A DNA stretch of 63,738 nt, filler included. It is 5 parts of 5 records of this genome, joined end to end, with 100 filler letters (N's around TTAATTAATTAA, not from the genome) between each part and the next. Parts side by side here need not be neighbours in the genome. Positions count along the whole stretch, not along the records: positions 17,671 to 35,050 come from SRR31156797_1813; 4 more parts are not named here. One strand, given 5' to 3'. Of the stretch, positions 17,571-33,874 are shown piece by piece. The notes under the pieces are model-generated. The model searched no databases, had not been told where the DNA came from, and saw nothing but the letters and a program-made list of their open reading frames with translations. The stretch's first letter is position 1, and each line of letters opens with the position of its first letter. The position numbers were made by a program, and so were the translations under genes.

Positions 17571-17670
17571 NNNNNNNNNNNNNNNNNNNNNNNNNNNNNN
17601 NNNNNNNNNNNNNNTTAATTAATTAANNNNNNNNNNNNNNNNNNNNNNNNNNNNNNNNNNNNNNNNNNNN
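17571..17670. other. Artificial contig spacer
   Basis: N-run with central TTAATTAATTAA (stops in all six frames), 100 nt. Confidence 0.98.
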
Positions 17671-17695
17671 GAACCGGTGACCTCATGACTGCCAG
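17671..17695 (-). mobile_element. att core of an integrative element: 3' fragment of tRNA-Ala(GGC)
   Basis: Minus strand reads CTGGCAG TCATG AGGTC ACCGG TTC (anticodon loop with GGC, 3' anticodon stem, variable loop, T-stem, TTC); the 5' half of the tRNA is absent. Confidence 0.75.
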
Positions 17696-17699
17696 ATAT

Positions 17700-17841
17700 T
17701 GCATCTATTTGCAGTGAGTGTCTAACTCCGTATTTACTGCTTCTAAGCACGTTTTTTGCGTAATTTCACTCTGCAACTACTGCATTCTCTGCATCTATCG
17801 CAACTACTGCATCTACTTTATGTTAGATGGATGTTAGATGG
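17700..17841. repeat. Short direct repeats next to the att core (candidate integrase arm/RDF sites)
   Basis: GCAACTACTGCAT x2 (17773, 17800), TGCATCTA x3, tandem ATGTTAGATGG x2 (17820-17841). Confidence 0.65.
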
Positions 17842-18208
17842 TTATCAAATACATAACATATAAATCGCATAAGAAATCTTATTATAAGTTCAATGTTACT
17901 ATGTTACCTAAGTAAACACTATAATTTTTATTTGCAACTTTGTAACCAATAAAAATAATTTATAATGCAGACAGTATAGAAGTATATTGCAGAATTCTTC
18001 TATAAAATAACTATTAAAATCTGGCATATGACTTTTGAGAACAATATCTGATTCCAACTTAACGATCTATATAGTTTCAATCCATACCCCTTAACTTATT
18101 AGCTTCAAGTTTGTTTCTGAATTATAGACTAAAAGCCTATTATCTGGTTTTTATTTAAGTTTCTTACATGCCTTATATGCCAATAAGTTAGCACCACGTT
18201 TATTTAGC

Positions 18209-18553
18209 CTACCCTTGATCTATCTTCTCTACCTCACTATCATTATAACTTGGTAAGTCAGTAATCATATCAAACCCTAAGCCTAAGCATTTTATAGCCC
18301 TATTCGGCTCTTTCCGATACCAATCAAGAAATAAATACGCTGAAATTGGATTCATTTTGTACGATTCGATCATCATTTCTATATCCACCATATCCTCAGA
18401 TATGTTTTTTATATTATATGACTTTATGTACTCCTCTATAGCTTCTAAGATATCATCATCGCAGTTAGCAATGTCCTCTGTCGTTTTCTTCAGAGTTTTC
18501 CTATCATACCCTAATTCCTTAAGGTGTCTATTTAGATTTCTATTATTTTTCAT
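18209..18553 (-). CDS. Small hypothetical protein, candidate inhibitor/immunity partner of the upstream peptidase
   Basis: 114 aa, RBS GGAGGT, motif MNPISAYLFLDWYRKEP; 19 nt after the peptidase gene. Confidence 0.7.
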   Translation of the reverse strand: MKNNRNLNRHLKELGYDRKTLKKTTEDIANCDDDILEAIEEYIKSYNIKNISEDMVDIEMMIESYKMNPISAYLFLDWYRKEPNRAIKCLGLGFDMITDLPSYNDSEVEKIDQG

Positions 18554-18572
18554 TTTTTACCTCCATAACTCA

Positions 18573-19226
18573 TTAAAGAACATTCACTATAGATAGAGCA
18601 AAGCATCTTGCATCACTCTCCAAAGGTTGTTCGAAATATAATCTAGGATTCAAATCATACCTTATATAATTATAAAAATTCTTTCGCCAAGCAGATACTA
18701 TATCACTATCAATATCATATCTATTAGGGTTTTTTATAACTTCTTTTTGATATGCATGCCTTAACTCATGCAACAATGTATCAAGAACTTCCTTCGCTTC
18801 TAACCTAGTCATAGGAGAATGCAGCACGTGATATGCATCAATACAAATACTGCTATCTGAAAAACTGAAATAACCATATATGCCTTCTAGTTTAGCTACT
18901 ACGATTCGATTTACCTCAATGCATAGTGTTTGACTCGTACCAGTTATTATTTGTACAATAGCACGTTCTCTATCCTCTGGAGATAAATTGGCAAATCTCT
19001 TCAAAGGGTCATCTCCTAATACTTCATAAACGAGATTTGTGCATTCATCTGTTAAATCTTCATCCCTTATTATAAGTTCTTCAGCTATTTCTTCCTCTGC
19101 AAAGACAATTTCTTCATACATATCACCTAAAAACTGCTTTATATTATTAACTATAACATGAACTGCAGTAATAAATTTATTTATTTGGGATTTAATGCCA
19201 GATTTTATATGTGTTATTACAGACAT
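18573..19226 (-). CDS. HEXXH zinc metallopeptidase (zincin) with an N-terminal amphipathic helix
   Basis: DTLLHELRHAYQ plus downstream YFEQPLESDAR (candidate third ligand Glu). Confidence 0.75.
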   Translation of the reverse strand: MSVITHIKSGIKSQINKFITAVHVIVNNIKQFLGDMYEEIVFAEEEIAEELIIRDEDLTDECTNLVYEVLGDDPLKRFANLSPEDRERAIVQIITGTSQTLCIEVNRIVVAKLEGIYGYFSFSDSSICIDAYHVLHSPMTRLEAKEVLDTLLHELRHAYQKEVIKNPNRYDIDSDIVSAWRKNFYNYIRYDLNPRLYFEQPLESDARCFALSIVNVL

Positions 19227-19227
19227 A

Positions 19228-21150
19228 TCATTTGTCTCCTGTTATTTTCATTTTTCTTATTTGCATCATCAATGATAGATTAAAGCATTCGTCATAATCT
19301 GATTTGCTTTTTGCTGATTTTAACAGCTCAGATAAATTTTCATCATAATCATCATTATTATCATTTATACAGCTAAATTTCCCAGTATACTCATCAAATG
19401 ATAAATACGCTGCATAGTGATTACATTCAGGTGCAATTGACGCCTCCCTAAACGGATTATTTACCAATGAAAGCCAATATTTACACACACCCCTCATGTT
19501 CTCACCGTAGGTTTTTGTCATTTCTAATTCGTTGAGCAATGCATCCTCAATCTGTCTTCCACTGAATTTTATAATTCGCTTTGTTGCAGCCATGCGCTTT
19601 TGCTCATTTGATGCACTATTGACAGCATCAATAAATAACGACTGGAATGTACTATCCACAAGAGCAGCAATATCAGCTCCATTCATATACTTTTCTTTTC
19701 TAGCGGCGACAGATAATATATTCTTAACAATACTATCTATTATCCCTGTGCTAAAAGTCTGGAAACAATCCTTTTTTCTAGATAAATGTGATTTGAAGAT
19801 AGCCCAGCATTCAGTCTTAGTTGGCATGAAAACGGAAAACTTCTCATCAAATCTGCCTTTTCTGAGAAATTCAGGTGGCAGATTGTTAACATTGTTGGCT
19901 GTAGCAAATACAAAGCATGGTTTATCTCTGTCTTGAAGCCATGTTAGGAACGAAGAAAAGGCTCTCATAATAGTTTCATTGCTATCCGAGCCTCCGTTTA
20001 CACCTGAAAAGCTTTTTTCTAATTCATCAATCCACAGTATACAGGGGGAAATAGCTTCAGCTAAGGCGATAGCTCGTGATATATTCGCTTCGGATTCACC
20101 TAGGTATTTACCCATCAGAGAACCAATATCCATCTTTACCAATGGAATTCCAAGTATTAATGACATGTTTTTTGCCATTAAGCTCTTTCCTGTGCCTGGT
20201 ATTCCCGATACCAAAACTCCCTTCGGTATATTGATGCCATGCGTCACAGTAGCCGCATAATTCTGAAATAAAGGTTTCTTTGAGCTAATCCATTCAGTTA
20301 AGTACTCAAGACCTGCAATATTCTCAACTTTATTGTCTTTCCACTCAAGTCCACCTCTTTTTTTTAGAATTTGCTTTTTGGACTCTCTGACTTCAGCGAA
20401 TAGAACTTTCGCCTTTTTCATCAATGGATTTTCATGTTTTGAGAAGGATAGTTCAATTGTATTTCTAATATCCGCTTCTCTAAATCCCCGAAATGCCTCT
20501 GCTAGTTCATTAAGCAGAGATGTAGGCATCTCAATATATTCATCTTCCATATTATTACGACAACACTCGCACACTATTTTCTTGACTTCATCAATATCTA
20601 AATGTTTAATTGTGATGATATAAGAGTAGGATTCTATCTCCTTACATATCAATCCATCGGTTGAAGCTATTACAATTAATGTATTGGATTCACCCCTTTG
20701 CTTTGACAGCCCTATATCCTTTAGAGCGTTCAATATCATCACTTGCTCTGTATCTCTGCTGCTATGTTCACTCATTCCTATTAAATCAAAGATATTTCTA
20801 ATATAAATCAGTTGATGAGCATCATCTATTGCGCAGGAACTTAGTTTCTTCAATACTGACCCATTAAGTAATTCTTTGGAAATAGTCTTAGCTTTAAACT
20901 CACGTATTGACGAGCCTGATATTTCATACATATTCTGTTCTTTTATATCCTGAGCAGCATTATCCTTTGTATTATACTTAGGCTTTATTTTTATAGTGTA
21001 ATCCCCTCTATAGCTTTCTCTGTATTTATATGAGGATACTACACTTTGTATATCTGTTTCACTCTCACATTGTATAACAACAAATGCAATTCCACTGTCA
21101 TCAAGAGTGGCCATTTTTTCACTAGCATCATATATAGCCTTCATATTCAC
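19228..21150 (-). CDS. AAA+ ATPase, Ycf46/SpoVK-like
   Basis: Walker A GIPGTGKS, pore loop GKYLGESE, Walker B ILWIDE, sensor ATAN, SRH LPPEFLRKGRFD; ATGA overlap with the upstream gene. Confidence 0.9.
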   Translation of the reverse strand: MNMKAIYDASEKMATLDDSGIAFVVIQCESETDIQSVVSSYKYRESYRGDYTIKIKPKYNTKDNAAQDIKEQNMYEISGSSIREFKAKTISKELLNGSVLKKLSSCAIDDAHQLIYIRNIFDLIGMSEHSSRDTEQVMILNALKDIGLSKQRGESNTLIVIASTDGLICKEIESYSYIITIKHLDIDEVKKIVCECCRNNMEDEYIEMPTSLLNELAEAFRGFREADIRNTIELSFSKHENPLMKKAKVLFAEVRESKKQILKKRGGLEWKDNKVENIAGLEYLTEWISSKKPLFQNYAATVTHGINIPKGVLVSGIPGTGKSLMAKNMSLILGIPLVKMDIGSLMGKYLGESEANISRAIALAEAISPCILWIDELEKSFSGVNGGSDSNETIMRAFSSFLTWLQDRDKPCFVFATANNVNNLPPEFLRKGRFDEKFSVFMPTKTECWAIFKSHLSRKKDCFQTFSTGIIDSIVKNILSVAARKEKYMNGADIAALVDSTFQSLFIDAVNSASNEQKRMAATKRIIKFSGRQIEDALLNELEMTKTYGENMRGVCKYWLSLVNNPFREASIAPECNHYAAYLSFDEYTGKFSCINDNNDDYDENLSELLKSAKSKSDYDECFNLSLMMQIRKMKITGDK

Positions 21151-21908
21151 AACCTTCCAATCACTAATTCTGCATTGTTCTTGAAACTACAATTATTAAG
21201 AATAATATTATTTAAGTCACTTGGGACAATAAAACTGCATTTATTAGTAGAGTCAATTATTACTGAATCAAAGGTTAATTTCAATTGATCAATTTTGATT
21301 TTTTGGGAAGGATAACATTTCATTATTATTTCTGGACTCCCATAACCAATAAAAGATATATTTGACATATTAATATCCATGTCATATGGCTCTCCTAAAT
21401 CACATAAAAAAATATTAAACTGCTTATTGCAAAAGCTGTTTTTGCTTGTCAGTTTAAAATATCTCTTTTTAATAATCTCAATTGCATTATCTAGGTCGGT
21501 TTGTGATGTTACCACCATGTCCCATTCGATATTATCATCAAACATACTATCCACGTACCACGAAGTAGTTTTTATTAGCTCAATCTTGTTCTTCGCTTTT
21601 TTTGATATTGGTTTCCTGCTTCTTGCAACTTTTTCCATCTGGTAGCTTCTTTCAATATTACATAAAGAACATAATGCATCAATATAGCTGCCAATACTTT
21701 CGTCACTATAATTTTTTGACAACAGACTAATTGCATTGTCGCTTATAGAACTAGTGTTTTTTTGCTTCAACCAGTTAACCAAAGTTCCAGACAATAGCCT
21801 TTGCCATAATTCTTCAAATAAGCTTTCTTTATTTGATGTTTTAATAAAAGCATATTGCAGCTCATCAATTGTATCAATACGTTTATTGTTAATAAACAGC
21901 CGCTTCAT
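21147..21908 (-). CDS. Hypothetical protein
   Basis: 253 aa, RBS GGAGGGG; motifs IDTIDELQ..SGTLVNWL and VVTSQTDLD..IFLC..FIGYG; coupled to the AAA gene. Confidence 0.75.
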   Translation of the reverse strand: MKRLFINNKRIDTIDELQYAFIKTSNKESLFEELWQRLLSGTLVNWLKQKNTSSISDNAISLLSKNYSDESIGSYIDALCSLCNIERSYQMEKVARSRKPISKKAKNKIELIKTTSWYVDSMFDDNIEWDMVVTSQTDLDNAIEIIKKRYFKLTSKNSFCNKQFNIFLCDLGEPYDMDINMSNISFIGYGSPEIIMKCYPSQKIKIDQLKLTFDSVIIDSTNKCSFIVPSDLNNIILNNCSFKNNAELVIGRL

Positions 21909-21954
21909 TTACTCCCCTCCAATTACTATATTAACTTATTATAATCATAAAACT

Positions 21955-21994
21955 CCATGCTATACAATCTAATTCTCGTAGACTGATAGCATGG
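21955..21994 (-). terminator. Internal stem-loop between the Hsp70-like gene and the downstream module
   Basis: CCATGCTAT...ATAGCATGG with an inner TCTA/TAGA pairing; followed by AGTTTT on the minus strand. Confidence 0.5.
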
Positions 21995-22056
21995 TTTAAA
22001 TTGTATCTATATCTTACTGTATTATATCCCATTGGTTTTCACAACTATAATCAAGC

Positions 22057-24036
22057 TTAGTTTATTAAACCAAGGTTATATAGTGCATTCTCTTTTTTAC
22101 TATCAAGTTCTGTTTTAATTGCACTAAATACATCATAAACCAAAGCCTCCATATAAACTTCACTTGTGAATACTTCATAGAGCCATTCATATGCATTAGT
22201 TTGTATTTGATTAATTAATTTAATTGCAGTATCCTGATCTATTTTCTGAGCCCTGAATATCTTTAATCCATTTCCTAAATTAGCAAAACTACTATTTAAT
22301 GACTTTATCTCATTAAACAGTTGTGATTTAACATTGTTTTTCAGTAAATCTCTAGTAGGATTAACCAAGATACTGTCCAATGTATTATCTGTAAACAATT
22401 CAATAAACAGACCATTCTTAACATATAAATCTCTAAACATCTCGTTCACTTTATCCTTGATGTTGTTTCGATAATCCTTGACACCTTTCTCATAGATTTC
22501 AATCATCTTCGTATCCATCCATTCTTTGAACTTTGCAGCAGCTACATTAATTATAGATTCGCTCCTTATATCCATTTCCAGCCATTTTACTAATGCATCT
22601 GCAATAACTTTACCTTCCATTACAGCAATTTCCTCTATTACATCCTGCAAAAGCAGTCCATAGCTCTCAATTGTAATATGCAATAACTCAGACTGTACAT
22701 CGCCATCTGAATCAACTACTATATTCCCATTCTCATCCTTATGCGGCATCTCCAAAATCTCATCAAAGGCTTTATCAAACTCCTTTGACCTTAATAATGA
22801 TGGTCCCCAGTAAGTAAGTCCTTGAGCTATGGTTGTTGATGGATTTGTATCAAAGCTTGCTTTACAATTTGGAAAATATTCTATAATCGCATCTCTGACA
22901 AAGTCCATTTGCGATGCTCCCCCAGTCAATACCATCAATGCACCTTCTTTTTCTGCATATGCACTATGTTCATTTTTAACATGCTCTAAGAATCGATTAT
23001 TTCTTTCTATCCAGGATTGATTGCCGATATCTTCCTTTGTAAAGTCACTCATATCATTAAAATGTGGTACAACATCCTTTATTGGTGAGTTTAATATTTT
23101 GTCCATCATTGTTTCATTCATGTACAACGTAATGCTAGCTCTCTTTTCTCCCCAGTCAATCTCCAATGGCAGTGGTTTGTTTATCGTAGATGTATTCAGT
23201 TGAAAACCACCTTGCTTTCGAACATTGAAATGTAATTCTTTCAATCTTCTTGTACTCAAAATCATCCAGTTTCTAAATGGTTCATCTGTTTCATACTTTT
23301 CCTGTACTTTTTTCAGAAGCTGATGTGAATTGTAATCCTCCTTTTTATCAAACATCTCTGACTGATATAGCATTGCATACAACATAGCGTTTTCTATGAA
23401 TGCTGCACCTAATGCACAACCATATGCACTTACTTCTGTAGTATTTTGGCTTGGTGTAATAAATGTAGCATCTAATGTTGATGAACCATAATCAAGCAGT
23501 AATACACCAGCTTCAATTGACTTAATGCTTACAGCAGATAATGCCTTATCATAGTATGCTAAGGCCGCTGTTGACTCATCACAGATTCGCGCATCATTTA
23601 GTCCAGCTTCTTTAAATATCTCCAAGTACATATCTTTTAGATTGCCATCTTTGTGCTGCCACTCTGATGGGCATCCAATAAACCAAATAGGTTCACATGT
23701 GTTGTCAAAATATTGTGGTACCTCTTTACGAACCTCATCATGAATAATACCTATAAATTCTTTTATTGTTTCATCATTTCCTGATCCTGGTGTTGATTTG
23801 AAATTGATATTGAAGCTTTTTACTCTCTTTAAATTAGAATAGTCAATATCAAATAAAGCATTACCATACATATAACTTCCTTCATTTGTTTTTGCATACC
23901 CTGATAACTGAGTCTCTGGAGTAAAAACAGATTTTGGATTTGTATCTTCGCTATGTGGTAACAAAAAATATACGGAAAACTCTCCATCACCTGAATCAAG
24001 ACCGAACACAACTGTATTTTCTTTAATTTTTGACAT
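22057..24036 (-). CDS. Divergent Hsp70/actin-fold ATPase with a helical C-terminus
   Basis: FGLDSGDGE, IGCPSEW, DESTAALAYY, LLDYGSSTLD, LGAAFIE, VLTGGASQM and IAQGL correspond to the Hsp70 phosphate-1, connect-1, phosphate-2, adenosine and connect-2 motifs; no recognisable DnaK substrate-binding domain. Confidence 0.85.
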   Translation of the reverse strand: MSKIKENTVVFGLDSGDGEFSVYFLLPHSEDTNPKSVFTPETQLSGYAKTNEGSYMYGNALFDIDYSNLKRVKSFNINFKSTPGSGNDETIKEFIGIIHDEVRKEVPQYFDNTCEPIWFIGCPSEWQHKDGNLKDMYLEIFKEAGLNDARICDESTAALAYYDKALSAVSIKSIEAGVLLLDYGSSTLDATFITPSQNTTEVSAYGCALGAAFIENAMLYAMLYQSEMFDKKEDYNSHQLLKKVQEKYETDEPFRNWMILSTRRLKELHFNVRKQGGFQLNTSTINKPLPLEIDWGEKRASITLYMNETMMDKILNSPIKDVVPHFNDMSDFTKEDIGNQSWIERNNRFLEHVKNEHSAYAEKEGALMVLTGGASQMDFVRDAIIEYFPNCKASFDTNPSTTIAQGLTYWGPSLLRSKEFDKAFDEILEMPHKDENGNIVVDSDGDVQSELLHITIESYGLLLQDVIEEIAVMEGKVIADALVKWLEMDIRSESIINVAAAKFKEWMDTKMIEIYEKGVKDYRNNIKDKVNEMFRDLYVKNGLFIELFTDNTLDSILVNPTRDLLKNNVKSQLFNEIKSLNSSFANLGNGLKIFRAQKIDQDTAIKLINQIQTNAYEWLYEVFTSEVYMEALVYDVFSAIKTELDSKKENALYNLGLIN

Positions 24037-24046
24037 AATCTACCCC

Positions 24047-24883
24047 TTAATAAATTATTTCTCCTTTTGCCAGCACTTTTTCTTTATAGCATACTGCTGG
24101 AAGAACTACCTCTGGTTTTTCATTCTTTCCTAATCTCTTTACTACAAACATATCTGGTATTTCTGTTTTTATCGTCCCCTCTTCATCAACTTCAAACTTG
24201 TCAATAACGTATATGCCCATACTTGCCAGTTTTGTTATCAGCTCACCCGTCAAGAGTACTTTAGCCTGTCTATCCTCCACATACTGTACTACACTCATCA
24301 TCTTTTGTACCCATTCAGCAAAAGATGAATCTTTTGTAATGTCATGTCCAGCATCAACAGGTCTTGTATAGACTTCAATCAGCCTCATTATCTCTTGTAC
24401 CGATGATTTAATATCCTCTACATTTGTGTTTAGCACTTCATCAGATAAATCAGCTGTCATCTTTACGCTGCATTGTCTCTCATTATCAGTTGATTGCTCA
24501 CTAATCCTCTTGTCAAAGATAAAAAATCTCCCTGCTTCACCTAGTGAAAAGAATAGCACAGCACATCCCACAGTAATCCAGATATTCTTAGAGAGAAAGT
24601 ATCCTCCTAGCCCACCTAATAGGGTAGTTACTAGAGTAATCGCAGGAGATATGAAATGTTTTGCAGGATTTATCACTCTTTCATCAGTCTTTTCTGCAAT
24701 ATAACTCTTTTCATAATCGACCTGGACTGATTCAAGTAATTTCGAATAATCTACAAATATCCCATAGATTTTGTGTATTATTTCTCTTTGCTTTGAATTG
24801 AGTTCTGAATACATTTCTGAATCGTTCCCTACATTCTTAATTAGTTCTGATTCAATACGTGACGCTATTTTTCTTATTTCCAT
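24047..24883 (-). CDS. Membrane protein with a TM hairpin and a GrpE-like C-terminal domain
   Basis: Two hydrophobic helices (aa ~78-122), a helical stalk, then LASMGIYVI...EVVLPAVCYKEKVLAKGEIIY resembling the GrpE head; 10 nt upstream of the Hsp70-like gene. Confidence 0.6.
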   Translation of the reverse strand: MEIRKIASRIESELIKNVGNDSEMYSELNSKQREIIHKIYGIFVDYSKLLESVQVDYEKSYIAEKTDERVINPAKHFISPAITLVTTLLGGLGGYFLSKNIWITVGCAVLFFSLGEAGRFFIFDKRISEQSTDNERQCSVKMTADLSDEVLNTNVEDIKSSVQEIMRLIEVYTRPVDAGHDITKDSSFAEWVQKMMSVVQYVEDRQAKVLLTGELITKLASMGIYVIDKFEVDEEGTIKTEIPDMFVVKRLGKNEKPEVVLPAVCYKEKVLAKGEIIY

Positions 24884-24909
24884 CTTAACCTACCTTTCAC
24901 AAATTTAGT

Positions 24910-25320
24910 TTATTCATCAAGTTTCTTAATCTTATCATTCAAAAATTTGATTTCATTATCAATTTGCTGTACTTTTTCAAGAAGCTTTAAGCGTATTATA
25001 CTTTTCTCATCAATAGCTTCCATTACATCTTCAACAGATGTTAAAGATGATATAGCGGCAATATTCTTGCCTAAATCTATTTCATCCGAATTTGAGAGGT
25101 TGTCATTAGTGCTTGAATTACTAAGCTCTGTTAAAATCTCTGGTGTAACAAATGCACTGTTTTTTACCAAAAACTCCTGTAAATGTCCATCAGATATTCT
25201 ATTTCCCTGTCTACCTGCTCCTTTTATTGAATCTAACCTATTTTCTCTAATCCATCTGCGCACTGTTTCAGGATTGACTTTTAATAGTTCTGCCACATTC
25301 ATTACTGAATAGAATTTCAT
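24910..25320 (-). CDS. Excisionase/MerR-like (HTH_17) DNA-binding protein with a C-terminal coiled coil
   Basis: YSVMNVAELLKVNPETVRRWIRENRL; heptad-rich tail. Confidence 0.85.
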   Translation of the reverse strand: MKFYSVMNVAELLKVNPETVRRWIRENRLDSIKGAGRQGNRISDGHLQEFLVKNSAFVTPEILTELSNSSTNDNLSNSDEIDLGKNIAAISSLTSVEDVMEAIDEKSIIRLKLLEKVQQIDNEIKFLNDKIKKLDE

Positions 25321-25389
25321 TTGCGTGCCTCCTTTTCATTCATTTCTTAATTCTTAACCTCTCTTTTGTATCAACTAACATAGTATGAA

Positions 25390-26499
25390 TTATCCATTCA
25401 CATAGGAATAATTTTTTACAGCATCCTTAGCATTAGTGAATACTTTTTTGATAAATTCAGAAGCTGGTTTTATAGCCTTATTATAAAGGGAATTACAAAA
25501 GTTCGTGATACCTTCTACTATATCCTCTGATACCAATTCCATAGCATCAAATCCTACCAGCAATCCAAGTCCTATACAAATACCAGCTGTTATTGGCCCA
25601 ACAACAATTAGCGGTGCAAGCAGAGATATTACCAATGAAGTCATTGTATACATTACTATAAACTCTACTGCAAGCAGCAACAGGAATTTTACCACTTTTC
25701 CGATTTTTTCTAACAAGCTCGATGCTTTAGCTTCGTCAATTTCATTTGCTACAAGAGCTTGAATAACCTTTGATTTTTCTATACCTGCATTTACGAAAAT
25801 ACTGACTATTGATGCCTCTACATCATTTGGGATGCCTTCAATTGTTCCATTACGAGCATGTGAGAAAACCACAGCTGAAAGTATTGCCTTTTCCTCAGAT
25901 GATTCAAATTTTGCATTTACAATTCTACTTATTTCTGCAGCGCTGGCTCTATTTGTATCATTAACATTTTCAAGCAGTTGTTCATTACCGCTAATCATCA
26001 TAAGTAAACTATCGTCAAAACTCATTATCTCCGCTACTAGTTTATCAATTCTTTCAGCATCATTCACAGATGCATTTGCTTCAACCCTGTCCTTTAACTC
26101 CTGCTCGATTGAGTCTGAATTAATTGTAACATCACCACTTAAAGCCTTTTGAACAGCACTTGCTGAAGATAGCTCTAAAGTGTATTTAATTGTTTCAAGG
26201 CATTTAATGGCCTGTTCAGTAGTCATTTCTTTTATCGAGTTTAAAAAATGCTCTTCTATTTTTACATCAATATCTTCTTCTGACTCAATTGCTTCTGTGA
26301 ATTTTGACGAATTATTAATGAATGCATCTACATTCGTTTCCACTTCCTCATCTGTCATCTCTATCAACTCGCCTTTTAAGTATTCTTTTATAATACTATT
26401 AACATCTTTGCCTTCTTCTTTTTGTTGATACAAAGAATTAGCTTCATTTATTACTTCTTTGTATTCTTCTTCTGTAATCTTCCAGTTCCAATTTCCCAT
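25390..26499 (-). CDS. Acidic helical protein with a C-terminal TM hairpin
   Basis: RBS AAAGGAAG before ATG at 26499 (MGNWNW; 369 aa); long hydrophobic segment KFLLLLAV...GLLVGF followed by an amphipathic tail. Confidence 0.75.
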   Translation of the reverse strand: MGNWNWKITEEEYKEVINEANSLYQQKEEGKDVNSIIKEYLKGELIEMTDEEVETNVDAFINNSSKFTEAIESEEDIDVKIEEHFLNSIKEMTTEQAIKCLETIKYTLELSSASAVQKALSGDVTINSDSIEQELKDRVEANASVNDAERIDKLVAEIMSFDDSLLMMISGNEQLLENVNDTNRASAAEISRIVNAKFESSEEKAILSAVVFSHARNGTIEGIPNDVEASIVSIFVNAGIEKSKVIQALVANEIDEAKASSLLEKIGKVVKFLLLLAVEFIVMYTMTSLVISLLAPLIVVGPITAGICIGLGLLVGFDAMELVSEDIVEGITNFCNSLYNKAIKPASEFIKKVFTNAKDAVKNYSYVNG

Positions 26500-26521
26500 T
26501 TTGCTCTTCCTTTCTTTTGTT

Positions 26522-26580
26522 TTATTACTACTATATGTAGTAATTAATTGTATTATATCGTAGTAATAAGCGCTCGTCAA
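26522..26580 (-). promoter_or_regulatory. Sigma70/SigA promoter with overlapping operator repeats
   Basis: Minus strand TTGACG (26580-26575), 17 nt, TATAAT (26557-26552); ATTACTAC/GTAGTAAT half-sites at 26524, 26537 and 26560. Confidence 0.7.
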
Positions 26581-27112
26581 GTCACTATTAACAAAAAAAT
26601 TAGTCTTGCGTGAAGATTCAATTACATATTCTATTTTGAATGCTTGAATAATAAATCACTCTTATTTTAACATATAAGTAATAATACTACTAGCATGTAA
26701 ACCATATCCATTAATATTGTTAATTATATATATTAATATTAACGTTTTTGATGTTGAGAATCTTAAAAAATAAACATCTTGAATGTTAACAGCAGCGATG
26801 AAATATATAAATTTTTGACAAAAAATGTAGTAATAGGTGGATTTCTAAATACGTATTGATCTCTTAAGAATAATGACTATTGTTAAATATATTATGTAAT
26901 CTACTCAAAAGAAAGCAGCATATTGAGTATTATTCAAGTACTGATTTCGTGTTTACTCAAGTCGTTTGTAACGCAATCAATGCGATTATACGACAATAAC
27001 TCACTATATAGTAGATAATTAAGATAATATCATTATTGTTGTACCAATTGAGTGCATGACTACCTGACATGCACTCTACAATATATAGCGTAAATAACAA
27101 TGAATATGAAGA

Positions 27113-27203
27113 AAACCACAATATATTGTGGTTTCAGACTGTCAAAAAAGTCCCAATCCAGGGACTTTTTTTGACAGTCTGGGCCACACATAGTTATGTG
27201 TGG
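27113..27203. repeat. Three abutting palindromes; the central one is a 47-bp inverted repeat resembling IS ends
   Basis: AAACCACAATATATTGTGGTTT; CAGACTGTCAAAAAAGTCCC-aatcca-GGGACTTTTTTTGACAGTCTG (27135-27181); CCACACATA-gt-TATGTGTGG. Confidence 0.65.
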
Positions 27204-27285
27204 TATTTTTTATTTTATCTTATGCATATGGTAATACATTTTCGGTGTTCTCGTTTTCTACACAGTACAGTTTTACCATATAGCA

Positions 27286-28713
27286 TTATTCAATCGTCCT
27301 ATGATACTTCACACTACCTTTGTCCAAATATAACAAACCATCTGATACCGATTCAATTAATTCTAAATCATGGGTAATCAAAATAATACAATGCCCTTTT
27401 TGTGCAAGATTTTTAATAAGCTCTGCAGTTAAAGTCATATTGTATCCGTCCAAACCACTTGTAGGCTCATCCAGAACTATTATCTTTTTACTGCTAACTG
27501 ATGCTATAGCCAAAAGAAGTCGTTGTTTTTGTCCTCCGGACAAAGATAAAGGATGTCGATCGATTTCCTCTTCAAGTCCTACACCTTTTAATACAGATAG
27601 TATTTTATCTCGGGTGATTACTTTGTTTGCTTTACCAATGCGAAACTCATCTTCTACAGTTGGCGCATATAATTGATAATCCGCATCCTGCTGAACAAAA
27701 AAAGTACTCCATATACGCTTTTTGCGCTTGGTAGCTTCCCCTGATATATAAACCTGTCCTACATTCTGCTGATACAACCCTGTTAAAACTCTGCACAATG
27801 TTGTCTTTCCTGAACCATTGCCTCCCATAATAGTGAAGATCTTACCTTCGTCAGCGAACATGTCTATATCATCTAGTATTTTCTGTCCAGAGAATGAAAT
27901 AGATATCTTTTCTGTGCTAATACAGCAGCTTTCTTCCTGTCTTACACGTTTACCCAAATTAATAATTGGTGCTTCAAATTGTCTAAGACCCATTTTTTTT
28001 AATTGATCTTGGCTAAGAGATAACGCTTCCTTACGGTTGTATTCTTCTTTGATTTCACCTTTATCCATAACAATCATTCTATCGAATAGTTCTTTTGCAT
28101 AGTGCAGCCGATGCTCAGATAATATTATTGTTGTGCCTGCCTCTTTTAGCCGATACATCAATCTTGATAAACGCACAATGGCATCACCGTCTAAATTGGC
28201 AGACGGTTCGTCAAAAACCAGTATTTTCGGCTCTACAGCACATGCTGATGCAATAGCAATTCTTTGCTTTTCTCCGCTGGACAGAGGGAAAATACATCGG
28301 TCAAGGATAGCGTCTACACCTATTTGTGATGCTGCTTCAACAAGACGTTTTTCCTGCTGCTGTCTTGGCATTGCATTGTTTTCCATGCCAAGCACAATTT
28401 CATCCGTGGTATTTAGCGTAAAAAACTGGCTTCGTGGGTCTTGAAACACACTTCCTATAATTATTCCGATTTCGCTTATTTCCATATCACTTGTATCCCG
28501 TCCCTCCAGCAGGTATTGGCCAGTTAGTTTGCCATGATAAAACTGCGGACAGAGTCCATTGAGTATGCGAGTTAGTGTTGTTTTACCGCATCCACTATGT
28601 CCTGTAAATAGAATAAATTCTCCCTGCTTAACATTCAAAGATATGTTTTTTAACTGCGGTTTATCAATATTGGATGATTGATATTGAAACGACAGATTTT
28701 TAAGTTGTATCAT
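27286..28713 (-). CDS. ECF-type transporter ATPase with two ABC domains
   Basis: GHSGCGKT/LSSGEKQR/DEPSANLD and GGNGSGKT/LSGGQKQR/DEPTSGLD. Confidence 0.9.
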   Translation of the reverse strand: MIQLKNLSFQYQSSNIDKPQLKNISLNVKQGEFILFTGHSGCGKTTLTRILNGLCPQFYHGKLTGQYLLEGRDTSDMEISEIGIIIGSVFQDPRSQFFTLNTTDEIVLGMENNAMPRQQQEKRLVEAASQIGVDAILDRCIFPLSSGEKQRIAIASACAVEPKILVFDEPSANLDGDAIVRLSRLMYRLKEAGTTIILSEHRLHYAKELFDRMIVMDKGEIKEEYNRKEALSLSQDQLKKMGLRQFEAPIINLGKRVRQEESCCISTEKISISFSGQKILDDIDMFADEGKIFTIMGGNGSGKTTLCRVLTGLYQQNVGQVYISGEATKRKKRIWSTFFVQQDADYQLYAPTVEDEFRIGKANKVITRDKILSVLKGVGLEEEIDRHPLSLSGGQKQRLLLAIASVSSKKIIVLDEPTSGLDGYNMTLTAELIKNLAQKGHCIILITHDLELIESVSDGLLYLDKGSVKYHRTIE

Positions 28714-28716
28714 TTT

Positions 28717-29442
28717 TCACCTCCAATAAAGCATGTCAAAGGCACCGACAGCTATAAATGCCATGACTGTCACTATAAGAAAAGCTGTGTCTCTGCAAGT
28801 AAACTTAGTAGGTCTGAAACTGACAATTTCACTATTGAATCCAACACCCCGTACTGTGACCGAGGCTGAAAGGTCTTCTGATATTTTTGTAATGCGTATT
28901 ATAAGTGGTATATACACATAATTTATCACCTGCGGCAAATGAGTAATCGTCCCCCAGAAGCCCACGCCAATCCCGCGGAATTTCTGGGCATTGCGAATAT
29001 GCCTAGCTTCCTCTTTTATCGTAGGAAAAAACCTTAGCATTGCAGCCAAGCCGATACCAACAGCTTTTGGCAGTCCAAGTGTGCTTAATGATGCCATTAA
29101 TGAGCCTGTATGCAGCCTTCCAATTATAACTGCAAAAAGCAACGGAACTATTGCCCTTCTTCCCATCATGCCAATATTAGATATCGATATTGCAATAGTG
29201 CCTGTCGGATTGGCTTCCACCCCTAATAAAGCTAATTTTGTAATGCCCCATAAAATGGCATAAGAAAAAATATAGCCAAGAATACTGCTGCCATGTCCAG
29301 CTAATATATGCCATCCCAACGAAATAATAAACAGATAGAGCAATCCTATTTCGCTATGCACAAAAAGCGAGGCAGTAAGCCCCGCAATAAATAGCAGTAA
29401 ATAGACTTTCGGTTCAAATGGTTTTTTATTTTCATCAATCAT
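28717..29442 (-). CDS. ECF transporter T component (CbiQ/EcfT-like)
   Basis: LRFFPTIKEE..IRNAQKFRG and LSASVTVRG motifs; multiple TM segments. Confidence 0.85.
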   Translation of the reverse strand: MIDENKKPFEPKVYLLLFIAGLTASLFVHSEIGLLYLFIISLGWHILAGHGSSILGYIFSYAILWGITKLALLGVEANPTGTIAISISNIGMMGRRAIVPLLFAVIIGRLHTGSLMASLSTLGLPKAVGIGLAAMLRFFPTIKEEARHIRNAQKFRGIGVGFWGTITHLPQVINYVYIPLIIRITKISEDLSASVTVRGVGFNSEIVSFRPTKFTCRDTAFLIVTVMAFIAVGAFDMLYWR

Positions 29443-30059
29443 GCTATACCTGATGCTTTGAAATGCTTATGCAGCACTTTTGTGCCAATATAATATCCTA
29501 ATACTCCTGCAACAATAGCGCAAACACCGGTTAAGACCATATTCTGAGGCGCACAATATACAGCAGCGATATTTTCAATTGAAGCTGTTGCTGCTGCTTC
29601 ATCCATTCCCATGCCCATAAATGTTTTTATCATAGCATCTTTCATAAAGAACATCTGAACTGTTCCTGCGTAAGTATAGAAAAGCCAATGAATTGTATAA
29701 GGGATTACAGGTCTCCACTTTTTCTTCCAGCCTCCTATCATAGTTAATTCTCCAATTATTCCTCCTATGCATATTATGATGCACGTTACTACTGAGCCAG
29801 ATATCAGATAGAACAAGCCAAAGATTAATGCAAGAATAAAATGTGATCCGTGTTTGGGGCTTTTGGTTATCATAAGTACATATATAATACCTCCAATAAT
29901 CGCAGGTACAACTAATCCTACTACCGAGGATAGCAGTATACCCAACGGTGCGATAAACGGCACCATTATTATTGCTGTAAGCAGTAATAAACAGCTAAGC
30001 AATACACAAAGTATTAAATCCTTAAGCCCAATAAATTTACGTTCTGATGTATTTTTCAT
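29439..30059 (-). CDS. MptD-family putative ECF S component
   Basis: N-terminal LKDLI, six TM segments, C-terminal LHKHFKASGIA. Confidence 0.8.
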   Translation of the reverse strand: MKNTSERKFIGLKDLILCVLLSCLLLLTAIIMVPFIAPLGILLSSVVGLVVPAIIGGIIYVLMITKSPKHGSHFILALIFGLFYLISGSVVTCIIICIGGIIGELTMIGGWKKKWRPVIPYTIHWLFYTYAGTVQMFFMKDAMIKTFMGMGMDEAAATASIENIAAVYCAPQNMVLTGVCAIVAGVLGYYIGTKVLHKHFKASGIA

Positions 30060-30098
30060 ATAAGTTCTCCTGTTTTTATTTATGTAATTTTGATATAA

Positions 30099-33659: not shown

Positions 33660-33682
33660 ATACAGCCTCCAATTAGTCGTAA

Positions 33683-33696
33683 TTAGCAACAGCTAA
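33683..33696. promoter_or_regulatory. Palindromic operator candidate upstream of the ABC/ECF operon
   Basis: TTAGC-AACA-GCTAA about 25 nt before the start codon, in the divergent promoter region. Confidence 0.35.
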
Positions 33697-33874
33697 CTTT
33701 CGGTAGAATAGCACGATATATATTGACCGTCAAAAAGAATAATTGGGTCAAACAGATACTATAGAATTAAAATCAATGGTATGTTATCATATATAAATAT
33801 GAATTCAGTTGGTTGCTCCGCAATTTTTTCCTAGTTGCAAACTACACTAAAAGATACTTTTTGTTGGAGATAAT

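Follow-up and report, generated by a model that had tools for sequence, protein, structure and literature searches.

IetAS is reported to pair a protease toxin with an ATPase antitoxin, its anti-phage mechanism being unknown (PMC13069673), and the CoCoNuT paper considers whether EssC-/HerA-like ATPases and accompanying small helical proteins could form stand-alone secretion cassettes (PMC11090510). Our literature search found no paper describing an operon of Hsp70-like, AAA, and peptidase genes. The operon described here comprises eight genes (g1 to g8) and lies in a window (the whole stretch of DNA analyzed) of 63,738 nucleotides. The window is a chain of five contigs, as indicated by four identical N44-TTAATTAATTAA-N44 linkers inside it (17571-17670, 35051-35150, 49226-49325, and 57479-57578), and the operon contig covers 17671-35050 (17.4 kb). 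Our favored reading, held tentatively, is that the operon belongs to an undescribed, horizontally mobile family of two-module conflict systems, probably of an anti-phage or abortive-infection type.

All eight genes are co-oriented on the minus strand and run from 26580 (26499 with the revised g1 start) to 18209. From g1 to g8, the intergenic gaps computed from the coordinates are 69, 26, 10, 148, -4, 1, and 19 nt, in exact agreement with the orientation and spacings given in the initial annotation (Table 1). A Shine-Dalgarno-like sequence precedes each of the eight genes. Seven of the ORF starts proposed earlier were left unchanged, but that of g1 was moved from the TTG at 26580, rejected because it is the -35 hexamer, to an ATG preceded by AAAGGAAG. 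The near-consensus promoter reported earlier was recovered as the top-scoring site in the region; promoter-like sites there number 48 against a shuffle mean of 51.9 (no excess), so this candidate draws its support from its own score and position. The terminator-like hairpin beyond the promoter-like site marks the upstream limit of the unit. The hairpin in the g4-g5 gap has a minimum free energy of -31 kcal/mol (z -2.8; 0 of 200 shuffles were as stable) and is possibly an attenuator or processing site. The short gaps, Shine-Dalgarno sites, strong promoter-like site, and upstream terminator-like hairpin together indicate, at the level of sequence, that the eight genes are one operon.

Table 1. 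Positions, in window coordinates, of the operon genes and of the features around and between them
Feature	Position	Strand	Basis or remark
Assembly linker N44-TTAATTAATTAA-N44	17571..17670	.	Contig join, artificial, one of four identical
T-arm-like 23-nt stretch (earlier "att core")	17671..17693	-	First letters of operon contig
g8, 114-aa protein with ~90-aa conserved helical domain	18209..18553	-	Alignment; 3' of peptidase gene
g7, 217-aa zincin-type metallopeptidase	18573..19226	-	HELRH at 153-157; QPxExDA downstream, conserved
g6, 640-aa classical-clade AAA+ ATPase	19228..21150	-	Pfam AAA; PDB profile; motifs
g5, 253 aa, rare unnamed family	21147..21908	-	4-nt overlap with g6 start
Hairpin and U-run in 148-nt g4-g5 gap	21955..21994	-	Fold versus shuffles
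g4, divergent Hsp70-like ATPase	22057..24036	-	Motifs; PDB profile matches
g3, 278-aa membrane protein, F1 family member	24047..24883	-	Hydropathy; hhalign
g2, HTH_17 (excisionase/MerR-like) DNA-binding protein with C-terminal tail	24910..25320	-	Pfam; TIGR01764
g1, 369 aa, helical, TM hairpin at C terminus (G1 family)	25390..26499	-	ATG start and Shine-Dalgarno; hydropathy
Promoter-like site TTGACG-17-TATAAT	26552..26580	-	11/12 matches; ~53 nt upstream of g1 ATG
Terminator-like hairpin	27112..27135	-	10-pair stem, after upstream ABC/ECF transporter genes

The g3 protein has a glycine-rich hydrophobic hairpin at residues ~77-123 and a conserved C-terminal domain. In profile-profile comparison, the g3 set matches the F1 family (hhalign probability 95.3%, E 2.4e-8, 187 columns), whose genes sit immediately upstream of Hsp70-like genes and whose members give weak glycine-zipper or bacteriocin-like Pfam matches (Bacteriocin_IIc, MccV). 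The description of g3 as GrpE-like is not supported: the protein is not recognized by the GrpE HMM, and in profile-profile comparison with GrpE it scores no higher than unrelated control families do. For g4, the assignment to Hsp70 stands on motifs and PDB profile matches but not on Pfam, where the HSP70 score (16.5 bits) lies under the cut-off of 20.6. The alignment invariants include D14, G16, G18, K80, E154, D182, G184, and T371-S375; the profile matches Hsp70 NBDs at E 5e-9, and the best 60 PDB chains listed are all of the Hsp70 family. Neither Pfam nor the PDB profile search detected a canonical substrate-binding domain, and a word-indexed search of 5.8 billion proteins returned only 12 g4 homologs at E<=1e-3 (best, 52%).

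In g6, an AAA core (~303-460) follows an unassigned N-terminal region of ~300 aa and precedes a C-terminal tail. The AAA assignment made earlier is secure in Pfam (1.6e-28, 100 bits); the best PDB relatives are Cdc48/p97/VAT (E 1e-34), and the protein matches phrog_8638 at 9.5e-75. Its motifs include Walker A (GIPGTGKS, 316), KYLGE (348), Walker B (ILWIDE, 371), and RKGRFD (430). The HExxH motif noted earlier in g7 is present and conserved, with H153 invariant and E154, H157, E203, D205, and A206 nearly so. Relatives of g7 match DUF3920 with a score under the cut-off, and no PDB relative was found by sequence. The catalytic motifs of g4, g6, and g7 are all intact. The g8 domain is kept from Bacteroidota to Bacillota in the alignment, and sequence comparison found no PDB relative for it, WXG100 included.

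The initial suggestion that these eight genes belong together as a conserved unit is borne out by metagenomic contig L081, which retains all of them in identical order at 20-34% identity. Its g1 counterpart is 23% identical to ours (E 4e-6). The predicted TM hairpin of g1 was recovered as hydropathy peaks at residues 273-291 and 297-315; neither Pfam nor PADLOC assigned this protein to a family, and the word-indexed search mentioned above (5.8 billion proteins) gave a single match to it. The HTH_17 domain of g2 also held (1.4e-7, 32 bits versus a cut-off of 27), with a TIGR01764 score slightly under the cut-off and a PADLOC match to mad1. A g2 counterpart occupies the same position in L081, and we presume that the protein is a local regulator. 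The g5 family, likewise present in L081, is rare, with 15 of 1.84 billion representatives reaching E<=1e-3 and no relative in Pfam, PADLOC, PHROG, NCBIfam, or PDB.

Of 151 pattern matches in a genome contig collection, 98 proved to encode a relative; we retained 80 of these, and metagenome contigs contributed 23 further relatives. The survey is based on 95 loci in which an Hsp70-like ORF was called; F1 genes occur in 63 of them, HerA-like genes in 51, G7 in 48, G8 in 33, AAA genes in 9, and G1 homologs in 7, these last in AAA-type loci. The pair of a TM protein and an Hsp70-like ATPase heads a wider family that spans many phyla but is patchily distributed within lineages, with hosts among Bacteroidota, Bacillota, Cyanobacteriota, Spirochaetota, Desulfobacterota-type lineages, and Binatia, and two Methanothrix-type MAGs among the archaea. 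Usually, the F1/Hsp70-like pair is followed on its 3' side by genes for a HerA/FtsK-type ATPase, an HExxH peptidase, and a small helical protein; in most relatives, the HerA/FtsK-type ATPase (DUF87) is ~920 aa long and is followed by two small proteins of ~94 and 77 aa. In some Bacillota loci, an AAA+ ATPase replaces the HerA/FtsK-type ATPase. The Hsp70-like tree joins the AAA-linked window and L081 sequences to a HerA-linked one, from the second Hsp70-like gene of L076 (support 100), apart from a seven-row AAA-linked clade (support 100), and the AAA label requires at least 3 changes on this tree; ATPase modules have been swapped among relatives. Tandem duplications occur as well, and the variable accessory genes include MORN, radical SAM, C39-like peptidase with RyR, NusG-like, and sigma-r4 genes.

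Co-occurrence of the homologs across genomes, which the initial annotation had proposed to check, is seen both in this survey and in the G002 family. There, G7 matches at E<=1e-15 are present in 12 of 151 genomes, and in 10 of these 12 (G002 and 9 of the 11 others) an Hsp70-like match lies no more than 6 kb away on that contig, showing patchiness and linkage alike. Some of the distribution counts against a conflict role. In Clostridia, a G7-like domain (E<=1e-5) is found in 12 of 399 genomes and adjoins Hsp70-like or HerA genes in only 2 or 3 of the 12, so the peptidase domain also occurs elsewhere. A 20-row clade consists of F1 and Hsp70-like pairs without a nearby ATPase-peptidase module, and its sole annotated locus (L006) has housekeeping-like neighbors (lnt-like, release factor, MiaB-like). 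Searches with g4 and g7 (tblastn) found no copy in a phage collection; in a plasmid collection, g7 had no match and g4 one distant match.

Whether relatives lie near defense genes was examined in the first 150 (31 loci) of 233 flanking ORFs (three per side). These were annotated with Pfam, and PADLOC was then run on 109 of them, leaving out 41 with housekeeping Pfam matches. PADLOC-matching ORFs (E<=1e-5) lie within three ORFs of the relatives in 13 of the 31 loci, 17 ORFs in all, a raw count to which some generic models (WYL, PrimPol, HEase) contribute. Eleven of the 17 are very strong matches, and strong defense neighbors occur in 8 of the 31 loci: AbiD (2.6e-69), AbiEii (2.9e-83), JukA (8e-73), Bunzi BnzB (3.7e-107 and 3.2e-105), and the PDC candidates PDC-S01 (2.9e-178 and 5.9e-89), PDC-S27 (3.2e-164), and PDC-M09A (three times). 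Against a conflict role, the neighbors on the operon contig itself are transporters and an AraC regulator with no defense genes, no recognized toxin domain (nuclease, NADase, or pore-former family) was found, and beyond generic AAA and HTH similarities the proteins of the system itself fit no PADLOC model.

Adjacent transporters would suit an accessory machine for membrane-protein quality control or envelope stress without any conflict role, in which damaged membrane proteins would be bound by the Hsp70-like/F1 pair and then, in the manner of a split FtsH, extracted and degraded by the zincin working with the AAA or HerA ATPase. The combination of AAA core, HExxH peptidase, and membrane anchors does resemble FtsH, whose model matches the g6 core at 3.7e-18, and the Hsp70-type NBD motifs of g4, the F1/Hsp70-like pairs without a protease module, and the L006 neighborhood fit as well. 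We nevertheless consider this machine unlikely, given the rare and patchy distribution in the G002 family and in Clostridia, the scarcity of g4 homologs, the module swaps, tandem duplications, and variable accessory genes, the strong defense neighbors, and a g4 in which no canonical substrate-binding domain was detected. A small type VII-like or FtsK/HerA-driven export device, its ring ATPase driving a toxin or the small helical proteins G8 and f5 across a complex of TM proteins while the peptidase matures the cargo, would account for the large HerA/FtsK-type ATPase and two small proteins of most relatives and for the several membrane proteins, and it recalls the stand-alone cassettes discussed in PMC11090510. 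Such a device seems improbable, however, since the window ATPase is a Cdc48-like unfoldase rather than an FtsK-type translocase, G8 is conserved across phyla where cargo would vary and has no detectable relation to WXG100 or any other PDB entry, and signal peptides or outer components were not seen. The MORN, radical-SAM, and 80-aa genes that some Bacteroidales insert between the HerA-like and peptidase genes, the upstream C39-like peptidase of some variants, and the glycine-zipper matches of F1 relatives could instead point to RiPP or bacteriocin maturation, with small-protein precursors, a zincin leader peptidase, and a glycine-zipper TM immunity or pore component. This we regard as highly improbable, indeed nearly negligible: the window holds no radical-SAM or other modifying enzyme, the radical-SAM proteins of relatives match viperin models only across the shared N-terminal core, G8 is a conserved, folded-looking domain and not a leader-core peptide, and the conserved gene set has no exporter.

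The operon had also been placed next to an integrative-element att site, a placement that we cannot support because the features behind it are an assembly linker and the end of a contig. The supposed core is a T-arm-like fragment cut by the end of the contig 516 nt past g8, directly against the artificial linker, and the alginate-lyase gene to the left of the operon is located on a different contig. No second copy of the 23-mer exists in the whole window, ARAGORN and Rfam found no tRNA gene, an integrase domain is absent from every ORF of >=120 aa on the 17.4-kb operon contig, and no long direct repeat flanking the operon was found. That the operon is cargo of a tRNA-targeting element, possibly an addiction module for its upkeep, is thus decidedly improbable; the closeness of the T-arm-like 23-mer to g8, the resolvases, transposases, or integrases near some relatives, the first report of IetAS as a plasmid-stabilizing toxin-antitoxin pair (PMC13069673), and variant positions listed only for the transporter part of the contig (a weak signal from a single run) would agree with it, but neither tRNA, integrase, nor repeat copy turns up on the contig or elsewhere in the window, and the operon has the same GC content as the adjoining genes. 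The similarity of g2 to excisionase-type HTH proteins would agree too, but an HTH gene at the identical operon position in L081 is more in keeping with a regulator than with an excisionase.

The preferred reading, a two-module conflict system, builds on the computed gene order, catalytic motifs, synteny, ATPase module swapping, and frequent defense neighbors; its physical interactions, trigger, and outcome for the cell are what we infer. In the first module, the F1 protein g3 would tether to the membrane the Hsp70-like ATPase g4, whose gene comes immediately after its own, and the pair may serve as an ATP-driven sensor or switch that binds a client there. The second module would join the peptidase g7 and its small helical partner g8 to a ring ATPase, which is the Cdc48-like AAA+ unfoldase g6 in this operon and a HerA/FtsK-type enzyme in most relatives. 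The proteins g1, g5, and g2 would be subtype additions acting as membrane target or effector, adaptor, and regulator, respectively; the TM segments, with the glycine-zipper and bacteriocin-like matches of F1, hint weakly at an effector role for g1 or g3. Among known systems, PADLOC gave no match for the whole operon, as had been expected, and no named system corresponds to it: the only matches are to mad1 for the HTH protein and generic ones to IetA/TRIP13 for the AAA core, whose IetA-like scores lie far under the equivalog cut-off. The general arrangement recognized at the outset, an NTPase with a protease and membrane proteins, proved right, and within it g6, g7, and g8 may act either as an ATP-dependent protease or, as in IetAS, as a protease toxin restrained by its ATPase.

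We conclude that the eight-gene set is a real and conserved observation, and that the operon represents a rare subtype within a broad family, of which we found no described member. Eight minus-strand ORFs lie head to tail, encoding in transcription order a transmembrane (TM) hairpin protein (g1), a helix-turn-helix (HTH) protein (g2), a membrane protein (g3), an Hsp70-like protein (g4), a 253-aa protein (g5), an AAA+ ATPase (g6), a peptidase (g7), and a 114-aa protein (g8). The initial annotation reported eight co-oriented genes with gaps of 69, 26, 10, 148, -4, 1, and 19 nt, and the coordinates give identical spacings. A Shine-Dalgarno-like sequence precedes each of the eight start codons, and computation shows the genes to be one transcription unit. 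The promoter, described as near consensus, is indeed the top-scoring promoter-like site of the operon region; because the total number of such sites (48, versus a shuffle mean of 51.9) does not rise above that in shuffled sequences, only the score and position of this site count as evidence. As the site spans the listed start of the first ORF, the TTG given there is the -35 hexamer, and g1 starts instead at a downstream ATG to yield a product of 369 aa. The hairpin in the g4-g5 gap (-31 kcal/mol, z of -2.8, with 0 of 200 shuffles equally stable) could act in attenuation or processing, dividing the operon into two halves with separate expression, and may lower the expression of g5 to g8.

Positions of features in the window and in related loci (L handles)
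Feature	Location	Positions	Strand	Remark
Linkers, four identical	window	17571-17670; 35051-35150; 49226-49325; 57479-57578		N44-TTAATTAATTAA-N44
Contig of the operon	window	17671-35050		
T-arm-like 23-nt stretch	window	17671-17693	minus	first bases of operon contig; "att core" of the initial annotation
Operon, eight ORFs	window	26580 to 18209	minus	
Start codon of g1	window	26499	minus	ATG
Promoter-like site	window	26580..26552	minus	TTGACG-17-TATAAT, 11/12 matches
Terminator-like hairpin	window	27135..27112		upstream of promoter-like site; closes preceding transporter genes
Hairpin in g4-g5 gap	window	21955-21994	minus	16 pairs, then U-run; from folding; gap of 148 nt
Operon half of contig	window	17671-27500		no variant letters
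Transporter half of contig	window	27600-35050		variant letters
ORF of >1944 aa	window	57907-63738		runs off end of last contig
BnzB homologue, then PDC-M09A	L065	14969-17515		directly downstream of system
BnzB homologue, then PDC-M09A	L066	8585-11173		directly downstream of system
RNA-repair-like set	L081	1-6768		upstream of the eight genes
Recurrent upstream genes	L083	2203-3237		
Recurrent upstream genes	L073	3238-3972		
Recurrent upstream genes	L033	7480-8565		
Inserted genes	L033	14514-16434		between HerA-like and peptidase genes
Two systems in tandem	L076	461-16571		Clostridia MAG
Tandem Hsp70-like pair, more distant	L093	53-10003		gut metagenome
F1-like and Hsp70-like pair	L104	9838-12743		Calothrix brevissima plasmid2

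Most domain assignments made for the operon at the outset are borne out. The divergent Hsp70, g4, has the phosphate-1, phosphate-2, and adenosine motifs of an Hsp70-type, actin-fold nucleotide-binding domain (NBD), with D14, G16, G18, K80, E154-S155, D182, G184, D189, T191, and T371-S375 invariant in 13 sequences. Its profile matches Hsp70 NBDs in the PDB at an E value of 5e-9, and all 60 of the 60 chains among the matches listed belong to the Hsp70 family, even though g4 scores below the Pfam gathering cut-off (16.5 versus 20.6 bits, PF00012) and far below those of the NCBIfam DnaK models (14 to 16 bits versus 648 to 1002). At the sequence level, neither a substrate-binding domain nor a helical lid was detected; the Pfam and PDB matches end within the NBD, and the C-terminal 250 residues matched no family in Pfam, in PADLOC, or in a comparison with PDC-M09A. 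Its homologues are few: a word-indexed search among 5.8 billion proteins gave 12 at E of ≤1e-3, with identity reaching 52%.

The partner encoded directly upstream, g3, had been called GrpE-like, and this assignment fails at both the sequence and the profile level. The protein has a glycine-rich, moderately hydrophobic hairpin at about residues 77 to 123 and a conserved C-terminal domain, and it belongs to F1, a family of membrane proteins in related loci (hhalign probability of 95.3%, E of 2.4e-8, 187 columns). A GrpE HMM run on five F1-carrying genomes gave six matches (L105 to L110), none of them at the position of the F1 gene in the loci from which those genomes were taken, and GrpE is absent among the 25 most-matched of the 65 Pfam families hit by 29 F1 proteins. 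In hhalign, the C-terminal parts of F1 align with 36 GrpE sequences at an E value of 0.05 (probability of 1.1%), a level shared by seven unrelated control families against the same alignment (E of 0.045 to 0.59); runs against 6 GrpE sequences gave E values of 0.011 to 0.16, and probabilities across all GrpE runs are ≤3.8%. PDB sequence searches with F1 and g3 gave no meaningful match. As the short aligned stretch is C-terminal in both g3/F1 and GrpE, a likeness at the level of the fold is possible. Separately, the GrpE HMM has matches beyond the best one in 11 of 41 sampled cyanobacterial genomes (among G415 to G443; E of 1.5e-35 to 8.6e-5, the weakest below the family cut-off), and these may belong to the Hsp70-containing systems of Kaur et al. 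2020 (PMC7159879).

The AAA+ ATPase, g6, a candidate Ycf46-type protein according to the initial annotation, scores 100.2 bits against PF00004 (cut-off of 21.2) and carries Walker A (GIPGTGKS) and Walker B (ILWIDE) motifs, together with KYLGE, which we take to be the pore loop, and RKGRFD, presumably the arginine fingers. Its nearest solved relatives are the Cdc48/p97/VAT unfoldases (E of 1e-34). About 300 N-terminal residues of its 640, and likewise the C-terminal part, fall in no family, and no TM segment was found. A phage family, phrog_8638 (function unknown), matches residues 87 to 512 at 9.5e-75, and relatives in phages and satellites were seen for the AAA core only. The HEXXH peptidase, g7, has the motif HELRH and a conserved QPxExDA downstream; across 23 sequences of its family H153 is invariant, and E154, H157, E203, D205, and A206 are nearly so. 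E203 is probably the third zinc ligand, and by its sequence g7 is an intact zincin. It reached no curated family (DUF3920 gave 23.3 bits versus a cut-off of 27.3 in a relative), and PDB sequence search found no solved relative. By computation, all three enzymes of the operon have intact catalytic motifs. The g8 product consists of a helical domain, conserved over about 90 aa. PDB sequence searches with g5 and with the families G7 (which includes g7) and G8 gave nothing meaningful.

The remaining genes are those added in the subtype. The C-terminal TM hairpin of g1 is seen as two strongly hydrophobic segments (residues 273 to 291 and 297 to 315) in a protein of no family in Pfam, PADLOC, or the other profile libraries searched, and g2 is an HTH_17 protein (PF12728, 32 bits versus a gathering cut-off of 27). 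The family of g5 is rare, with 15 representatives at E of ≤1e-3 among 1.84 billion. In an all-against-all hhalign comparison of the accessory families, the sole links were those of F1 to g3 and of family f18 to a 347-aa protein of locus L021; none was found for g5, G1, G8, the N-terminal part of the AAA protein, or that of HerA.

The set recurs well beyond this genome. In a pattern scan of species-representative genomes, 98 of the 151 matches to the pattern proved to be relatives; we retained 80 loci from these, and a metagenome scan added 23. ORFs were called and clustered in these 103 loci; a simple caller recovered the Hsp70-like ORF in 95 and missed it in 8. One metagenomic locus, L081, has all eight genes in the same order as the window, with g3, g4, g6, g7, and g8 found by tblastn at 23 to 34% identity and g1, g2, and g5 by pairwise BLASTP at the matching positions (E of 4e-6, 7e-6, and 1e-5). 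Synteny is therefore conserved, both as the full order in L081 and as a gene set across loci. Among the 95 loci, F1, a membrane protein of about 300 aa encoded directly upstream of the Hsp70-like gene, is present in 63, a HerA/FtsK-type ATPase of about 920 aa (DUF87, PADLOC HerA) in 51, the G7 peptidase in 48, G8 in 33, a further small protein (f5) in 23, an AAA ATPase in the HerA position in 9, and G1 in 7. These counts give a general layout of two modules, F1 with the Hsp70-like gene, and a ring ATPase followed by a zincin and one or more small proteins. Computation shows both the F1/Hsp70-like adjacency and the ring ATPase/zincin/G8 adjacency to be conserved, and the window and L081 are a rare subtype with g1, the HTH gene, and g5 added.

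For 92 Hsp70-like rows, a maximum-likelihood tree from a quick search, with the careful one unfinished and long branches flagged, groups the AAA-linked proteins of the window and L081 with the second Hsp70-like gene of L076 (support of 100); downstream of the latter lie a 601-aa gene and then a HerA-like gene. This clade is separate from a seven-row clade of other AAA-linked proteins (support of 100), and the AAA-linked label changes at least three times on the tree. Taken with the AAA and HerA labels, the tree shows that the two modules recombined and that the ring ATPase was exchanged. A further clade of 20 rows consists of F1 and Hsp70-like pairs without a nearby ATPase-peptidase module; in L006, the sole such locus with annotated neighbours, the adjoining genes are housekeeping-like.

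The genes of the system are closely linked, and its distribution is patchy. In the family of G002, a Bacteroides genome, G7 is matched at E of ≤1e-15 in 12 of 151 genomes, and in 10 of these (G002 and 9 of the 11 others) an Hsp70-like match lies on the same contig within 6 kb. In a Clostridia sample with 399 genomes scored, a less strict threshold (≤1e-5) gave G7-like matches in 12; only in G001, G314, and probably G010 (where HerA-G7 lies on a contig of 3 kb) does the match sit beside Hsp70-like or HerA genes, the others being G7-like domains within different proteins, so that the peptidase domain is more widespread than the system. The hosts of about a hundred loci are bacteria of many phyla and two Methanothrix-type archaeal MAGs. 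Cultured carriers include Clostridium sp. chh4-2, Bacteroides gallinarum DSM 18171, Phocaeicola faecicola, and Prevotella sp. P5-92, which opens the conflict reading to direct testing.

Several variants were seen among these loci. L076 holds two systems in tandem, an AAA-type set (f18, f44, Hsp70-like, AAA, G7, and G8) and a second set headed by a g3-like gene, and L058 and L046 have additional Hsp70-like copies. In L033, MORN-repeat, radical-SAM, and about 80-aa genes are inserted between the HerA-like and peptidase genes, as they are in other Bacteroidales (L039, L042, L073, L082 to L085, L090, L091, and L099); the radical-SAM protein of this variant matches PADLOC viperin over the N-terminal core only (2e-12). 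A more distant tandem Hsp70-like pair occurs on the gut-metagenome contigs L093 to L103 with a different conserved set, in which several genes without a named family accompany those for a DivIVA-like protein and a small protein resembling radical-SAM activases, possibly another undescribed system.

Around systems with both the Hsp70-like gene and the peptidase, we collected 233 flanking ORFs (three of ≥120 aa per side), annotated the first 150 (31 loci) with Pfam, and scanned 109 of these with PADLOC, leaving out 41 with housekeeping Pfam matches. Among the 150, housekeeping genes are mixed with mobile or defence-type genes, with domains including Abi_2, AbiEii, Schlafen AlbA_2, PLD with SocA/Panacea, NERD, and DUF4143, alongside resolvases, one transposase, and CHAT-TPR. 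PADLOC matches at E of ≤1e-5 were obtained for 17 ORFs in 13 of the 31 loci, so that defence neighbours are frequent on an uncontrolled count; at E of <1e-30 there are 11 ORFs in eight loci (AbiD, AbiEii, JukA, BnzB twice, PDC-S01 twice, PDC-S27, and PDC-M09A three times). In two Bacteroidales isolates (L065 and L066) a homologue of Bunzi BnzB (E of about 1e-105) and then PDC-M09A follow directly downstream, a position taken by a PDC-M09A gene in L038. No defence gene was found on the window's own operon contig. The eight genes of L081 are preceded by an RNA-repair-like set (RNA ligase, HD plus AAA_33 kinase-like protein, metallophosphatase, BspA-type LRR, RtcB, and HD_4), and in one Bacteroidales subtype a C39-like peptidase-RyR fusion, a NusG-like protein, and a sigma-70 region-4 protein recur upstream.

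The initial annotation had also placed the operon beside a tRNA-derived att core of an integrative element, and this placement falls away. The window is a chain of five contigs, as seen from four identical blocks that we take to be the usual six-frame-stop linkers of a pseudomolecule, and findings that span these joins rest on false adjacency. The alginate-lyase gene to the left of the operon is on a different contig and is no true neighbour. The supposed core is a T-arm-like 23-mer that occurs once in the window and is cut by the contig end beside a linker, and the bases upstream of it form no anticodon stem on inspection by eye. ARAGORN and Rfam called no tRNA gene in the window, and no integrase domain was found among the ORFs of ≥120 aa on the operon contig, which otherwise encodes ECF/ABC transporters and an AraC regulator. 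The operon is not flanked by any long direct repeat, and GC content is even along its contig. Sequencing runs listed with the stretch comprise one DNA run and no RNA run; no joint bearing on an excised form appeared among the contigs of the DNA run, of which the cover is fragmentary and of low depth. The mobile-element context is thus an assembly artefact; a tRNA gene or att remnant at the contig's end is possible. In that same low-depth DNA run, possibly of the source sample, variant letters are confined to the transporter half of the contig, which is only a hint that the operon is strain specific. Elsewhere in the window, the ORF that runs off the last contig has a GC content of about 0.45 to 0.47, versus about 0.30 in the rest.

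We tentatively favour the reading of the family as a conflict system in which an Hsp70-like membrane switch is joined to an ATPase-protease module. In this scheme g3 would anchor g4 at the membrane and the pair would act as an ATP-driven sensor or switch, while g6, g7, and g8 would form an ATP-dependent protease, or a protease restrained by its ATPase as reported for IetAS. As a result, a protein of the invader may be destroyed or the cell may bring itself to a stop, and the membrane proteins g1 or g3 could be target or effector. An accessory quality-control machine resembling FtsH, the membrane-anchored AAA and M41 zinc protease in one chain, is unlikely. FtsH shares with the operon a classical-clade AAA unfoldase, an HExxH metallopeptidase, and membrane association, and FtsH models match the AAA core of g6 at 3.7e-18; however, the operon has these parts in separate genes, g6 scores 65.6 bits versus a TIGR01241 cut-off of 600, no likeness of g7 to M41 or any solved peptidase was detected, and a HerA/FtsK-type enzyme takes the place of the ATPase in most relatives.

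That same enzyme could instead drive an export device, a reading that we hold to be improbable. Element cargo or an addiction module is quite improbable. The phage collection gave no match for g4 or g7, the plasmid collection gave none for g7, and g4 had one distant plasmid match, in Calothrix. There an F1-like and Hsp70-like pair without the ATPase-peptidase module is flanked by two phage-integrase-family genes on a conjugative plasmid (L104). A peptide-maturation cluster is highly improbable. The TM part of F1 gives weak glycine-zipper, bacteriocin, or C19orf12-type matches in Pfam (29 proteins).

If the conflict reading holds, a whole family would be added to the catalogue of prokaryotic conflict systems, with an unusual logic in which an Hsp70-type chaperone would be the switch and would be coupled with both a ring ATPase and a metallopeptidase. 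Doubtful is the broader claim of an unnamed, phylum-spanning immune class, in which a membrane-tethered Hsp70 paralogue would sense infection or damage and gate a ring-ATPase/zincin protease, the HerA/FtsK and Cdc48-like AAA+ rings being interchangeable and the window a rare eight-gene subtype with private g1, g2, and g5; if true, it would be a chaperone-licensed proteolytic defence without a described counterpart. The natural swap of HerA/FtsK for a Cdc48-like AAA+ ring in one slot offers a ready comparison of ring roles in defence, a question that extends to IetAS and the HerA systems. As a quality-control machine, the set would instead be a new relative of FtsH, modular, split over separate genes, and equipped with an Hsp70.

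The initial annotation could match the operon to no named system, and PADLOC-DB v2.0.0 indeed has no model set covering the eight genes. Among the eight proteins only g2 (mad1, 1.6e-5) and g6 (IetA and TRIP13) have matches there, and the relatives behave likewise except for HerA matches and Leo/PDC-M09 matches in part of the Hsp70-like protein. No published account of an operon with a TM protein, an Hsp70-like protein, HerA or AAA, and a zincin was found; mention in a supplementary file is conceivable. In HerA-containing defence systems, such as Sir2 with HerA and DUF4297 with HerA, the likeness lies in the HerA/FtsK-type ATPase (DUF87; PADLOC HerA to 2.5e-16) that precedes a possible effector enzyme in most of our relatives, whereas the window has an AAA+ ATPase there, the partner is a zincin rather than Sir2 or a nuclease, and the Hsp70-like pair is unique to the window's family.

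Another known system with some likeness is IetAS, an AAA ATPase (IetA) with a serine protease (IetS). This defence system was originally characterised as a toxin-antitoxin pair that stabilises plasmids; the protease is reported to be the toxin and the ATPase the antitoxin, while the anti-phage mechanism is given as unknown (PMC13069673). Here too an ATPase gene is followed by an adjacent protease gene, and the AAA core of g6 matches four PADLOC IetA models (best of 4.2e-18) and NCBIfam IteA_antiphage. In contrast, g6 reaches only 53 bits versus the NF042959 equivalog cut-off of 510 and, at 640 aa, has large terminal parts of no family, g7 is an HExxH zincin rather than a subtilisin-like serine protease (no IetS match occurs in the eight proteins), and the operon has six further genes, including the Hsp70-like pair. 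The protease-toxin and ATPase-keeper logic, as reported there, offers a working model by analogy for g6 and g7.

Among predicted conflict systems, some are noted to include Hsp70 paralogues, and GTPase-centred ones Hsp70 with GrpE (PMC7159879). The operon shares with DnaK-GrpE the intact NBD motifs of g4 and a small partner gene directly upstream, but g4 has no detected substrate-binding domain and its partner is a membrane protein that fails the GrpE tests; nor does the operon have GTPase, tubulin, DnaJ, or FNIII genes. Type III CoCoNuT systems have a divergent Hsp70-like protein, CnuD, in a predicted defence operon, as here, and some CoCoNuT extensions add SpoVK/Cdc48-like AAA, EssC- or HerA-like ATPases, and glycine-zipper proteins (PMC11090510). 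However, the window and related loci lack McrB/McrC, HEPN, vWA, and coiled-coil nuclease genes, and the motifs of g4 are intact, whereas those of CnuD are reported there as degenerate and the protein as probably a poor ATPase. In Eleos and PDC-M09, the likeness is confined to some relatives (L045, L004, and L058), in which the part after the NBD matches LeoBC, LeoB, LeoA, or PDC-M09 (2.8e-12 to 3.5e-5); the window's g4 has no detectable match and no GTPase domain. The C-terminal part of its clade aligns with three PDC-M09A proteins at an E value of 0.37, equal to controls, and a dynamin-like or PDC-M09-like C-terminal domain is rejected for this clade.

Hsp70 domains also occur in Death/TRADD-N proteins (PMC8195603), an Hsp70-like NTPase is remarked on in a ParA preprint, and DnaK is fused to EACC1 protease modules (PMC12642450). 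As far as the available parts of these sources go, the defining genes of all three differ from those of the operon, as do those of the CoCoNuT and GTPase-centred Hsp70 systems, and none of the five is its identity; CapH/CapP-type regulators and IetAS variants (PMC13069673) are likewise rejected on the parts seen. By analogy, the operon, with its putative function, fits a known kind, the multi-gene NTPase-protease conflict systems. Compared with these, its cast is new: a membrane-tethered Hsp70 paralogue, an interchangeable HerA/AAA ring, and a zincin.
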